From sequence record KU159289.1: a stretch of 3,432 bases of DNA, one strand, 5' to 3'. The translations under genes and the position numbers were made by a program. This DNA comes from Escherichia phage DT571/2. Below, in pieces: positions 1-3,432 of this stretch (position 1 is its first letter; each line of letters opens with the position of its first letter). Below the pieces are notes generated by a model, which was given only the letters and a program-made list of their open reading frames with translations, did no database searches and had not been told where the DNA came from.

Positions 1-120
1 ATGGCACTTAAAACTAAAATTATTGTACAGCAGATTCTGAACATAGATGACACTACAACTACTGCTAGTAAGTATCCTAAATATACAGTAGTTTTAGGTA
101 ATTCTATTAGTTCTATTACT
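1..120 (+). other. N-terminal module (aa 1-40), putative virion attachment region of the fibre
   Basis: Non-repetitive, hydrophobic-rich segment MALKTKIIVQQILNIDDTTTTASKYPKYTVVLGNSISSIT that precedes the low-complexity shaft. In modular tail fibres the N-terminus is the conserved part that docks to the tail. The assignment is by position and analogy only. Confidence 0.4.
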
Positions 121-3100
121 GCTGGTGAATTAACTGCTGCTGTAGAGGCCTCTGCAGGATCCGCTGCTGCTGCTAGAGGTTCTGAAATAGCAGCTAAGGA
201 CTCTGAAAATAACGCTAAAGATTCAGAGATTCAGGCGGGTATTCATGCTGGTGCTTCCGAAGCTTCAGCAACTCAATCTGCTGCCTCTGCTACTGAGTCA
301 GAAAGACAGGCGGGTTTAGCCCAAAGCAGTGCAGATAATTCTGCAGCTTCTGCGCAAGAATCAGAGGGATTTAGAGACTCTGCAGAATTGGCAGCGCAGA
401 ATGCTGAACAAAGTCGTTTACTAGCTGAACAAGCTAAAACAGCTGCGCAACAAGCTCAAATAGCCGCAGAAGCTGCTAAGACTGGTGCTGAAACAGCTAA
501 AGATGGAGCTGATGCTGCTGCTACCACTGCTGGCGAACATGCTGCTGCTGCAAGGCAATCAGAACTAAACGCTAAGATTTCTGAAACTAATGCTGCTGGT
601 TCTGCTACTGAAGCCGGTGATAAAGCTATCGATGCTACTACTGAGGCAGATCGTGCTAAAGCTGAGGCAGATCGTGCAACTCAGATTGTTGATAGTAAAC
701 TTGATAAAGTAGATATTTCTGGTTTTATCAAAGTTTATAAGACTAAAGCAGAAGCTGATGCCGATGTTGTAAACCGTGTGCTAGACGAAAAGGTTCTAGT
801 CTGGAACCAAACTAACTCAAAATTTGGGTGGTACAAAGTAGCTGGAACTGCTGAGACTCCAGTATTAGAGTTAGTAGAAACAGAGCAAAAGTTAGTTTCT
901 GTTAATAACGTTCGTGCAGATGATGGGGGTAACGTACAGATCACCCTTCCTGGTGGTAACCCCTCTTTATGGCTGGGTGAAGTTACTTGGTTCCCTTATG
1001 ATAAAGATTCAGGTGTTGGCTACCCTGGTGTTCTTCCTGCTGATGGTCGTGAAGTTCTTCGTGCAGACTATCCAGATACTTGGGAGGCTATTGAGGCTGG
1101 CTTAATTCCTTCTGTACCAGAAGCTGAATGGCAAGCCGGTGCGTCTCTTTACTTCTCTACGGGTGATGGCTCTACAACCTTCCGTCTACCAGATATGATG
1201 CAAGGACAGGCATTCCGTGCACCAACTAAAGGCGAAGAAGATGCTGGCGTTATTAAAGATCAGATTCCTTATGTTGTGACAGTTAATGGTATCTCTCCAG
1301 ATGATATAACTGGTAACGTTGAAATTGATACCTCACTACAAGGTACTGTTAGTATTAATCAAGGCGGTACTGGTGCAACAACTAAAGAAGACGCCCGTAT
1401 AGCCCTCGAGTTATATAGTACTACGGAGGTTGATTCTGCTTTAGCAGATAAGGCTGATATTGCTACCACGTATACTAAGATGGAGGTTGATTCTGCTTTA
1501 GCAGATAAGGCTGATATTGCTACCACGTATACTAAGATGGAGGTTGATTCTGCTTTAGCAGATAAGGCTGATATTGCTACCACGTATACTAAGATGGAGG
1601 TTGATTCTGCTTTAGCAGACGCTAAAACTCAGTCAGATACTGATTACTTATTAAAAGCTAATAACCTTTCGGATTTGGCAGACCGTGCTGCCGCATGGCT
1701 TAACGTGCGACCCGTTGGTTCAACGCCGCTGGCTGGTGATCCTGTTGGCGACTACGATGCTGTTACTAAGCGTTGGGTAGAGAATAAGATTAACACCGGT
1801 ACAGTAGGGCCAACAATGAATGGTGTCATGAACTATGGGGTAGGTGACTTTCACCTGCGGGATAGTCGCGCATACATTCAGCCGTACGAGGTGGTGAGTG
1901 ATGGTCAGTTGTTGAATCGTGCTGACTGGCCCGAACTCTGGGCGTATGCGCAAATGCTATCGCCAATTAGTGACGCTACCTGGCTGGCTAACCCAAATCA
2001 GCGCGGCAAGTATTCTACTGGTGACGGCACAACGACCTTCCGAGTGCCAGACCGTAATGGTGTTCAGCCTGGGTCAATATTCGGCTTGTTCTGCCGGGGG
2101 GACGGCGGGCAAAGTGGCAACGATGGGTATATCTACGAATCAGGAGCACCTAACATCACAGGCCGCGTCGAATTACACGGCGGCGGGTCCGCAAGTATTA
2201 TCAACGGTGAAAGTGGCGCGTTCCATGGGTCTGGTGGCGCGGATTCGCAATATCGGACGCCAAGCAACCTAACTGTTAGTAACGGCGCGGTCTCCTACGG
2301 CATCATTAACCTGGACGCCTCGAGGGTCAGCGCGATCTATGGTCGGACCGTAACGGAGTTGCGTCCAAATAACTTCATGGGTGTGTGGGTTATTCGAGCG
2401 TCAGGCGGGTTCGTGGCGGCGAATACGTCTTGGAGTGTGATCAATGGTGATGCGACACGTCCAGCTGACGGCACAATTGCTCAAGGTGGTAACATATTCT
2501 CATTGTACAAGATTAGTGGCGCCAATGAGGCTGAAGCTAGTTTCTGTGCCCGTGCCGATATCGGCGGTAACTATTCTGCTCGTATTTCCGTAACGAACAG
2601 TACCACACAAAGAAGCGCGAATCTGGATTTTGACGAAACAGGTAAACTAACTATACCGAATAGTATAGTTGTGAACTCGGTGAACTCCGATTTTGACGGT
2701 GTATGTTGGGCGGATTCCGCCGATAAAGTACGCTGGCGTATGGGGATTAACGACGCTTCGGGCAATTTTAAGTTGCAATCATATGACGCGTCGGGCGCGT
2801 ACCGAGATACCGTCGTGGAGATCCCCGGAGCGGGAACAGGCGGAGTAGTGTGGGCCCGTGATATAACCATTCGCCCGACTACCGACGGTCCGGTGAAGTC
2901 TTTCGTTCTACACAACGCAAAAGATTCAGTCCCGGCTGGTAATTTCCGCACGATGTGGGATTCGGTTAATATCAATAGTAACCAGATCTATAAATATTTT
3001 GAGAAGGGAAACGGCACTGGCATTACAATCAACTGGCCTTCATCTGGTGGTGTTCTTGCCTTGCAAGGCACATCGGGGCGGGACTTTAAGAAAGATATTG

Positions 3101-3432
3101 TCAATGCAGACGTTACAGAAGCGGTTGCACGTATTGAACAAATGCGCATGGTGAACTACGTGTATAAGGACGATGTGCAGGAGCGCGTCCGCTTCGGCAT
3201 AATTGCCGAGGAGGCTGAAGCGATTGCACCTCAATACATCAAACATCGAGAAGAGACGTACGATGTGGAGGTGGACCCAGAGACTAACGCTATTATCGGT
3301 GGTAAGACCCGCGACAGGCCGTCGGTGGATGTAAACCCGATCGTTATGGATTTGATGGGTTGTGTGCAGTATCTCAATAAGCAAATCGAGGATTTGAAGG
3401 CAGAGATAGCCGCGCTGAAGGCAGCGAAATAA
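1..3432 (+). CDS. Phage long (L-shaped-like) tail fibre protein, 1,143 aa, with C-terminal intramolecular chaperone / autoproteolysis domain
   Basis: Single ORF spanning the whole window, ATG at 1-3 and TAA at 3430-3432, no in-frame stops. The translation shows an Ala/Ser/Glu-rich shaft, two tail-collar-like motifs (STGDGSTTFRLPD, STGDGTTTFRVPD), the L-S-D-L-A-D-R-A-A-A-W-L-N linker motif common in tail fibres, and a C-terminal chaperone-like domain ending in a heptad helix (QIEDLKAEIAALKAAK). The N-terminus (KYPKYTVVLGNSISSIT) resembles, from memory, that of phage T5 L-shaped tail fibre pb1; this is not verifiable here, so no gene symbol is assigned. The true start cannot be confirmed because there is no upstream sequence. 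Confidence 0.9.
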   Translation: MALKTKIIVQQILNIDDTTTTASKYPKYTVVLGNSISSITAGELTAAVEASAGSAAAARGSEIAAKDSENNAKDSEIQAGIHAGASEASATQSAASATESERQAGLAQSSADNSAASAQESEGFRDSAELAAQNAEQSRLLAEQAKTAAQQAQIAAEAAKTGAETAKDGADAAATTAGEHAAAARQSELNAKISETNAAGSATEAGDKAIDATTEADRAKAEADRATQIVDSKLDKVDISGFIKVYKTKAEADADVVNRVLDEKVLVWNQTNSKFGWYKVAGTAETPVLELVETEQKLVSVNNVRADDGGNVQITLPGGNPSLWLGEVTWFPYDKDSGVGYPGVLPADGREVLRADYPDTWEAIEAGLIPSVPEAEWQAGASLYFSTGDGSTTFRLPDMMQGQAFRAPTKGEEDAGVIKDQIPYVVTVNGISPDDITGNVEIDTSLQGTVSINQGGTGATTKEDARIALELYSTTEVDSALADKADIATTYTKMEVDSALADKADIATTYTKMEVDSALADKADIATTYTKMEVDSALADAKTQSDTDYLLKANNLSDLADRAAAWLNVRPVGSTPLAGDPVGDYDAVTKRWVENKINTGTVGPTMNGVMNYGVGDFHLRDSRAYIQPYEVVSDGQLLNRADWPELWAYAQMLSPISDATWLANPNQRGKYSTGDGTTTFRVPDRNGVQPGSIFGLFCRGDGGQSGNDGYIYESGAPNITGRVELHGGGSASIINGESGAFHGSGGADSQYRTPSNLTVSNGAVSYGIINLDASRVSAIYGRTVTELRPNNFMGVWVIRASGGFVAANTSWSVINGDATRPADGTIAQGGNIFSLYKISGANEAEASFCARADIGGNYSARISVTNSTTQRSANLDFDETGKLTIPNSIVVNSVNSDFDGVCWADSADKVRWRMGINDASGNFKLQSYDASGAYRDTVVEIPGAGTGGVVWARDITIRPTTDGPVKSFVLHNAKDSVPAGNFRTMWDSVNINSNQIYKYFEKGNGTGITINWPSSGGVLALQGTSGRDFKKDIVNADVTEAVARIEQMRMVNYVYKDDVQERVRFGIIAEEAEAIAPQYIKHREETYDVEVDPETNAIIGGKTRDRPSVDVNPIVMDLMGCVQYLNKQIEDLKAEIAALKAAK
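121..684 (+). other. Ala/Ser/Glu/Thr/Gln-rich low-complexity quasi-periodic shaft region (aa 41-228)
   Basis: Strong compositional bias visible in the translation (e.g. SAASATESERQAGLAQSSADNSAASAQESE, AEQAKTAAQQAQIAAEAAKTGAETAKDGADAAATTAGEHAAAA). It contains 21-nt (7-aa) periodic sub-repeats, e.g. gctaaggactctgaa at 193-207 vs gctaaagattcagag at 214-228, and the 16-nt exact direct repeat ctgaggcagatcgtgc at 641-656 and 662-677. Alanine is encoded almost entirely by GCT. Confidence 0.7.
964..1224 (+). other. Tail-collar-like domain 1 (aa ~322-408)
   Basis: The segment GVLPADGREVLRADYPDTWEAIEAG...YFSTGDGSTTFRLPDMMQGQAF fits the phage tail collar pattern as I recall it (c-d-G-x-x-L-x-x-x-x-Y-P-x-L-f-x-x-i-G ... 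G-d-G-x-t-t-F-x-L-P-D-l-r-G). Boundaries are approximate. Confidence 0.55.
1426..1619 (+). repeat. In-frame tandem direct repeat, 57-bp unit x 3 perfect copies + 23-bp partial fourth copy, encoding the 19-aa unit EVDSALADKADIATTYTKM
   Basis: Identical 57-nt units gaggttgattctgctttagcagataaggctgatattgctaccacgtatactaagatg at 1426-1482, 1483-1539 and 1540-1596, then a partial copy gaggttgattctgctttagcaga at 1597-1619. The sequence just upstream (YSTT, nt 1414-1425) looks like a degenerate edge of an older copy. Confidence 0.95.
1813..2070 (+). other. Tail-collar-like domain 2 (aa ~605-690)
   Basis: VVSDGQLLNRADWPELWAYAQ...KYSTGDGTTTFRVPDRNGVQPG repeats the same pattern as domain 1, but in the GC-rich codon style. 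Boundaries are approximate. Confidence 0.55.
2071..3075 (+). other. Gly/Ser/Asn-rich distal module, putative receptor-binding (host-range) domain (aa ~691-1025)
   Basis: Gly-rich beta-type composition (GDGGQSGNDGYIYESGAPNITGRVELHGGGSASIINGESGAFHGSGG ...) located immediately upstream of the predicted chaperone cleavage site. That position is where the distal receptor-binding domain sits in chaperone-dependent fibres. I recognise no catalytic motif. Confidence 0.45.
3076..3429 (+). other. C-terminal intramolecular chaperone / autoproteolytic domain (peptidase S74-like; aa 1026-1143), predicted to be released after cleavage following Ser1025
   Basis: Ser1025 (tcg, 3073-3075) and Lys1030 (aag, 3088-3090) have the S-x4-K spacing of the Ser/Lys dyad of endosialidase-type chaperone domains. 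They are followed by DIVNADVTEAVARIEQMRMVNYVYKDD, an acidic/hydrophobic core and a terminal heptad helix LNKQIEDLKAEIAALKAAK. Recognised from memory of the family, not from an HMM search. Confidence 0.65.

Follow-up and report, generated by a model that had tools for sequence, protein, structure and literature searches.

One 57-bp repeat unit gained in the fused LtfA-LtfB tail fibre gene of the laboratory-selected phage mutant DT571/2-ABF

By sequence comparison, the whole stretch of DNA analysed here (the window, 3,432 nucleotides from Escherichia phage DT571/2) is the ltfA-ltfB fusion gene of the laboratory-selected mutant DT571/2-ABF (GenBank KU159289), and its in-frame array of a 57-bp tandem repeat carries one unit more than the array of the wild-type gene. 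This one-unit gain happened within a single laboratory selection step, because the ltfA gene of ABF's immediate parent was re-sequenced and found to have 'no alterations' (Golomidova et al. 2016, Viruses 8:26, PMC4728585). The best explanation overall, in which we place moderate confidence, is that the fusion arose in the laboratory, that slippage added one period to the fibre shaft and that the resulting allele was enriched by selection. The extra copy is already known, as the sequence and the gain were both published in 2016, and for that reason it carries little weight as a discovery. What is new here is the crossover at the nucleotide level, the substitution Y275F, the different crossover of the comparison mutant DT530(1), evidence for concerted evolution of the repeat units, a second array in Salmonella phage Kenya-K36 and the proposed assignment of the unit to the tandem β-layer motif.

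The protein encoded by the window matches UniRef A0A3S5WLY1 from end to end with 100% identity; this entry is the 'Fused tail fiber protein' of Escherichia phage DT571/2. Compared with the wild-type DT571/2 genome KM979355, which served as the reference, window positions 1-1838 correspond to wild-type ltfA nt 1-1781 with one extra 57-bp unit and one substitution, and positions 1828-3432 correspond to ltfB nt 700-2304 with zero mismatches (positions 2000-3432 were likewise 100% identical to DT571/2 ltfB). The diagnostic sites are all of the ltfA type upstream of the crossover interval, ATGAACTATGG, and all of the ltfB type downstream of it. In KM979355 coordinates the crossover falls at 74004/71916, which is the deletion 71916-74004 of the paper (PMC4728585). 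The ltfA/ltfB homology tract of ~345 bp, in which the two genes share ~78% DNA identity by blastn, is the substrate of this fusion deletion, and a protein comparison finds LtfA and LtfB identical over window residues 573-659. The published ABF fusion (KU159289) is identical in sequence to the window; its authors quote a protein boundary of 663/288, as against codons 610-613 here, and theirs is the edge of the zone common to LtfA and LtfB. The parental gene order in KM979355 is stfC-stfB-ltfC-ltfA-ltfB, so that ltfA follows ltfC immediately, within a tail module of the T5 type. The window itself contains just the one open reading frame, and the order of its neighbours is read from KM979355. The single substitution, A824T, is the sole mismatch to wild-type ltfA over nt 1-1562. 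The wild-type TAT at codon 275 is also present in DT57C and TrudiGerster, and a term search of the main text of Golomidova et al. 2016 found no mention of Y275F (PMC4728585).

Table 1. Features of the fused fibre gene, in window coordinates.
Feature	Position	Strand	Basis or remark
Single ORF, 1143 aa, fused LtfA-LtfB L-shaped tail fibre of DT571/2-ABF	1..3432	+	ORF list, UniRef match, paper section 3.8
Domain homologous to the long-tail-fibre proximal protein of kuraviruses phiEco32 (gp14) and SU10	691..1359 (aa 231-453)	+	phmmer
A824T: T in window, A in wild type; TAT to TTT, Y275F	824..824	+	In the phiEco32 gp14-like domain
First phage tail collar-like motif	1153..1200 (aa 385-400)	+	Pfam PF07484
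57-bp tandem array, 3.4 identical copies	1425..1619	+	Codes (EVDSALADKADIATTYTKM)x3 then EVDSALAD; TRF and exact check
LADKADIATTYTKME, first of three copies	1441..1485 (aa 481-495)	+	Further copies aa 500-514, 519-533; regex survey
Predicted β-layers of the first copy	KAD aa 484-486; TYT aa 490-492	+	Tandem β-layer consensus
ltfA/ltfB homology tract	1717..2061	+	Wild-type ltfA nt 1660-2004 vs ltfB nt 589-933; blastn
Crossover interval ATGAACTATGG, codons 610-613	1828..1838	+	Site-by-site comparison; 11-nt ltfA/ltfB identity
Second collar-like motif, below Pfam threshold	2008..2061 (aa 670-687)	+	PF07484, 16.4 bits, E=0.0089, segment 1621-2400
Peptidase_S74 intramolecular chaperone domain, LtfB-derived	3076..3237 (aa 1026-1079)	+	PF13884, E=3.4e-10, 40.5 bits (cut-off 22)

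A preliminary description of this DNA had reported three perfect in-frame repeats of 57 bp. Their identity and frame were borne out by Tandem Repeats Finder and by direct check, and the count is revised to 3.4. That description had recognised neither the ltfA-ltfB fusion nor the earlier publication of the extra copy. Tandem Repeats Finder returned a period of 57 with 3.4 copies, 100% matches, 0% indels and a score of 390 at 1425-1619; direct inspection resolves three full identical units (1426-1482, 1483-1539 and 1540-1596) and a partial fourth of 23-24 nt (1597-1619). The exact period-57 self-match spans 1425 to 1619, which amounts to 138 consecutive matches, and chance cannot be the origin of such a run (~4^-138). 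Since 57 bp is 19 codons, the array stays in frame within the 1143-residue reading frame, and every unit codes for EVDSALADKADIATTYTKM, in agreement with the 19-residue increment that had been given for each unit. The Pfam positions also confirm that the array lies downstream of the first collar-like motif (aa 385-400) and upstream of the second (aa 670-687). Identical head-to-tail units with a length that is a multiple of 3 characterise a slippage-prone coding minisatellite, and copy number here differs between near-identical genomes, with 3.4 copies in ABF and 2.4 in the wild-type parent between identical flanks.

The same gain was described by Golomidova et al. 2016 (PMC4728585), whose section 3.8 lists three complete copies and one incomplete copy of a 19-residue motif in the LtfA-derived part of the fused protein, against two complete and one incomplete in the wild type. 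They placed this stretch directly behind the part with homology to phiEco32 gp14, and they speculated that the duplication was compensatory (PMC4728585). ABF was chosen from ~200 plaques of an ltfB-opal mutant for its good growth on E. coli HS3-104 and was plaque-purified (PMC4728585). The claim that the expansion was very recent is thus upheld, as a gain of one unit over the wild type, on a laboratory timescale, from a parent with unaltered ltfA. We consider it highly unlikely that the third copy is instead an error of sequencing or assembly in the deposited ABF locus. Although perfect tandem repeats are notoriously prone to mis-assembly and the text of the paper leaves the sequencing method for this locus unnamed (PMC4728585), its authors explicitly noted and interpreted the extra copy (PMC4728585), an array of 195 bp would normally fall within one read, and what was gained is a single complete in-frame unit, no more and no less, between flanks that are as in the wild type.

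Natural relatives place this gain in context. Among 50,697 phage records the unit is present in just four lineages, DT571/2, DT57C/DT530, TrudiGerster and Yersinia phage phiR2-01, and all four have the array in the same place, in 2.4 copies, from aa 476 on (from aa 497 in phiR2-01). The 2.4 copies of wild-type DT571/2 ltfA are identical, and the two units of DT57C are 3 nt apart. In TrudiGerster both units are identical to each other and carry private synonymous variants (GAA, GCC), a pattern which indicates that they were homogenised by conversion or unequal exchange, or else re-duplicated. The units of phiR2-01 have diverged to 38/57 nt identity, and the 2.4-copy architecture is therefore old. 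A scan with an exact 20-mer of the unit matched DT571/2 itself only in IMG/VR and had zero matches in metagenome or genome contigs. The suggestion that copy number varies within natural populations is not borne out by these data, with 2.4 copies in 4/4 natural lineages and no further alleles by the 20-mer scan of IMG/VR, metagenome and genome contigs; the comparison of homologous genes that had been proposed alongside it did separate ABF (3.4) from the wild type (2.4), whereas the natural relatives all had 2.4. With the relatives all at 2.4 copies, natural length tuning by the 19-residue unit is likewise not seen, which counts against a benefit from the extra copy.

These comparisons bear on the idea that the three-copy allele was a neutral minority variant of the stock that hitchhiked with the fusion, an unstable length polymorphism that contributes nothing to the ABF phenotype. 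Expansion and contraction are to be expected of a perfect 57-bp repeat whose shifted copies share 81 bp, a minor variant would escape bulk re-sequencing of the parent, and the authors describe the ltf locus as spontaneously highly unstable, having found that ~30% of the DT571/2 plaques raised on C600 had lost growth on HS1/2 (PMC4728585). However, the parental ltfA had no alteration, the natural isolates all have 2.4 copies, the 20-mer of the unit was matched by DT571/2 itself alone in IMG/VR and by nothing in the metagenome and genome collections, and the allele is unlikely to have met a rare deletion as well as a point mutation by chance. We judge hitchhiking to be distinctly unlikely.

The phiEco32 gp14-like domain (phmmer match to PDB 7z47_D, E=2.5e-45, query 231-453) ends just upstream of the array, and LtfA aa 223-471 has been described as related to phiEco32 gp14 and proposed as the docking region of LtfB (Golomidova et al. 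2016, PMC4728585); the array lies directly distal to this proposed LtfB docking domain. The SU10 fibre entry 7z47 matches aa 231-453 in sequence, but its built residues are the first 90, and the branch domain and linker are without structure. DT57C LtfA (PDB 8hqz chain d) is near-identical to the fused fibre in the N-terminal region, as fits an LtfC-binding segment followed by a long trimerising α-helix, and the helices that AlphaFold2 predicts here span aa 41-120 and 125-231. Together with the C-terminal Peptidase_S74 domain and the neighbouring ltfC in the parent genome, this N-terminal part identifies an L-shaped fibre of the LtfA/pb1 type. The DT57C cryo-EM structure shows LtfA as a trimer and has its N-terminal part only built, and no solved homologue resolves the array region. 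The collar-like motifs are short: PF07484 scores 24.9 bits on the whole protein (cut-off 24) and 20.4 bits for aa 385-400 on the segment alone, and each motif match spans just 15-18 residues of the 57-position profile.

We read the unit as one 19-residue period of a trimeric α/β coiled-coil shaft, a reading that draws on its residue pattern and its conserved period. In a regex survey, LADKADIATTYTKME matched LxxKADKxxVYTKxE at 8/10 specified positions with exact spacing. This tandem β-layer consensus, with two β-layers six residues apart, occurs in 2C3F and in many bacterial ORFs (Hartmann et al. 2016, eLife 5:e11861, PMC4786415), and the register in 2C3F is a β-layer, ten helical residues, a second β-layer and three residues (Hartmann et al. 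2016, PMC4786415). These segments total 19 residues, which is the period of the array. Each period would then comprise a β-layer TYT, ten helical residues KMEVDSALAD, a β-layer KAD and finally IAT, and the extra unit would lengthen the shaft by one whole structural period, on a rough estimate ~2.5-3 nm, with the neighbouring domains undisturbed. When the array segment was used as the query of a protein search, many short, unrelated metagenomic proteins came up that carry 2-5 diverged units with a 19-residue period (TTYTKTEVDxALxxKAxxx). Long fibres were not among the matches of this search.

Other searches and models contribute less to this reading. The AlphaFold2 monomer model of the full protein, built on a 20-sequence alignment, has a mean pLDDT of 48 and a pTM of 0.26, and within the array (pLDDT 39-48, low confidence) it contains short helices only, over the EVDSALADKA-type segment of each unit. 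A search of the PDB with the array segment returned DT57C LtfA, in which the region is not modelled, and otherwise weak or non-significant matches only, those to prophage hyaluronidases being non-significant. The short tail fiber gp92 (9zd7, E=0.029) was rejected as a candidate, its alignment falling mostly on the downstream NLSDL flank and not on the units. Pfam searches gave a best E of 0.5, to unrelated families, for the isolated array segment and nothing relevant for six metagenomic proteins with similar repeats; no Pfam model covers the unit.

How the third copy arose can be outlined as follows. The array was already present at 2.4 identical copies in wild-type ltfA, and the ABF lineage gained one further unit, likely through slipped-strand mispairing or unequal exchange between copies in shifted register; in the wild type such copies share 81 bp of perfect homology. 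An out-of-register crossover between ltfA and ltfB arrays was rejected as the source of the third copy: ltfB is without the unit, and the array ends 209 bp before the crossover. Selection on E. coli HS3-104 would then have enriched the extra unit, and possibly Y275F too, through better assembly or stability of the fused fibre. The phenotype-selected clone carries three changes in one 3.4-kb gene, namely the fusion, the added 57 bp and Y275F, and because neutral chance co-occurrence of three changes is improbable, selection or a coupling to recombination is favoured. For the extra unit we lean, if only modestly, towards selection, that is, towards the compensation on which the original authors speculated.

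Coupling to recombination would make the unit gain a by-product of the fusion event. Here the synthesis linked to the exchange would have slipped by one unit on passing the array, which lies ~210-400 bp before the crossover; the same synthesis could have introduced Y275F by error, and the extra unit would be of little or no consequence for function. Changes of copy number are common when repair synthesis traverses tandem repeats. In line with this, a crossover on 11 nt of perfect identity in a 78% tract represents an unusual, strained exchange, the array (1425-1619) is near the crossover (1828-1838), a third change, Y275F, sits in the same gene and none of the three changes is found in the parent. 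Yet DT530(1) made a comparable ltfA/ltfB exchange that left its array unchanged, Y275F lies ~1 kb from the junction, and the picking of ABF by phenotype and its plaque purification on the selective host gave ample chance for selection. We regard a mere by-product as doubtful and favour slippage followed by selective enrichment.

The case for compensation was made by comparison with DT530(1), the fibre of which is functionally weak (PMC4728585). The DT530(1) LtfAB fusion (KU236381), from a sister phage, is also a spontaneous in-frame ltfA-ltfB fusion via homologous tracts, and its array has 2.4 copies without duplication. The two fusions differ in their crossovers, however. That of DT530(1) lies at nt 2341-2345 (~aa 781), in a second homology patch in the distal domain or head, ~190 aa downstream of ABF's, and whereas the ABF crossover is upstream of the second collar motif that of DT530(1) is not. 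Because its crossover is inside the distal head, the weakness of DT530(1) may reflect a chimeric head and not the number of repeats. Y275F is a further confound of the compensation argument because it is located inside the proposed LtfB docking domain (aa 231-453). The effects of the fusion, Y275F and the extra unit are therefore confounded, which weakens the published argument; given Y275F and the differing DT530(1) crossover, it still rests on a confounded comparison.

These findings raise the possibility, which we put forward tentatively, that the function of the fibre is tuned through how many 19-residue periods separate the LtfB-docking domain from the distal head and that one added unit was the compensation required to restore the folding, stability or reach of the branchless fibre. 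If so, T5-like phages could adjust fibre length fast via slippage-prone, homogenised β-layer repeats at the linker. Independently of its benefit, the extra unit provides a documented and clean case in which an in-frame tandem repeat in a phage receptor-binding fibre changed copy number in one laboratory selection step. That the unit is one β-layer period, if true, would explain why gains are tolerated, since a whole structural period is added, and on this structural reading the unit would be a plausible modular spacer for fibre engineers.

The array can be set beside several known systems. The wild-type LtfA proteins of DT571/2, DT57C and TrudiGerster and the g125 fibre of phiR2-01 have the N-terminal attachment and helical region, the gp14-like domain and the array in common with ABF; they differ from it in having 2.4 rather than 3.4 copies and in their distal modules. 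Across LtfA homologues the linker between GGTGATTKE..AR.ALE and NLSDLADRAAAWLNVRP varies in length: it is without a repeat in P0008 and P0013 and has one 13-residue unit in P0004 and P0007. In Salmonella phage Kenya-K36 (OQ291033) the linker holds a 39-bp array of the 13-residue unit YTQTEIDDKLADV, with 3.3 copies at 95% identity. This array is independent of the 57-bp array. The two share the linker site and consist of near-identical in-frame repeats with a YT(Q/K)xE(I/V)DxxL core, but the Kenya-K36 unit lacks the KAD hexad of the 19-residue unit and corresponds to one β-layer (VYT) plus ten residues. The closest structural parallel we propose is HylP1, a Streptococcus prophage hyaluronidase (PDB 2C3F). 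When the array segment is compared with HylP1 the motifs are in register, but the phmmer alignments are weak (E ~2) and not significant alone. The unit departs from the consensus in having T and not V at β1 of the second layer and I and not K after KAD. The spacing, 8/10 consensus residues and, probably, the context of a parallel trimeric phage fibre are common to both; HylP1 has about one such period, as against the 2.4-3.4 periods found here in perfect tandem.

At the protein level the fusion junction has been quoted as LtfA 1-663 joined to LtfB 288-767 (Golomidova et al. 2016, PMC4728585), yet residue 660 (T; window 1978) is already LtfB-type, and by nucleotide markers the exchange falls within codons 610-613 of the window, a crossover consistent with the genome coordinates in the same paper. 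In wild-type numbering this corresponds to ~aa 591-594, whereas the LtfAB fusion of the sister phage, DT530(1) (KU236381; comparison record L003), crosses over at gene nt 2341-2345, ~aa 781, in a second ltfA/ltfB homology patch within the distal head. The two "similar" deletions are thus not equivalent.

The fusion gene also carries a substitution relative to wild-type DT571/2 ltfA, A824T at window 824, which gives Y275F; codon 275 is TAT in DT57C and TrudiGerster as well. A term search of the main text of the 2016 paper found no mention of Y275F (PMC4728585). Since this residue lies inside the proposed LtfB-docking domain, the substitution confounds the claim that the gain of a repeat is the compensatory change.

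GC content rises from ~0.40-0.48 at window 1-1700 to ~0.50-0.57 at about 1700-3432, the LtfB-derived distal half. The latter shares ~80-87% DNA identity with tail-fibre genes of the unrelated ~45-kb coliphages Envy, Sloth and ADB-2, and likewise with those of Sodalis phage SO-1. This suggests that the distal half is a receptor-binding module exchanged horizontally.

Within the N-terminal helical region, which is rich in Ala and Glu, there is a second tandem repeat encoding roughly TEADRAKAEADRAT. A published primer, T5f2-R (GATATTGCTACCACGTATAC), which served for cloning the divergent ltfA region, falls inside the 57-bp unit and therefore has two annealing sites in the wild type and three in the window.

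Repeat and primer coordinates in the window
Feature	Position	Description
Second tandem repeat	628-681	imperfect; period 21, 2.5 copies, 78% matches
T5f2-R site	1456-1475	
T5f2-R site	1513-1532	
T5f2-R site	1570-1589	

Salmonella phage Kenya-K36 (OQ291033; comparison record L005, 4469-4595) has an in-frame 39-bp tandem array (3.3 copies, 95% identity, YTQTEIDDKLADV) at the same linker position as the 57-bp array, of which it is independent; the homologues P0004 and P0007 hold one copy each. In TrudiGerster (MZ501108; comparison record L004, 4414-4551) the two complete 57-bp units match each other exactly and have in common private synonymous variants relative to DT571/2 (GAA, GCC), which suggests homogenisation, that is, concerted evolution, or re-duplication.
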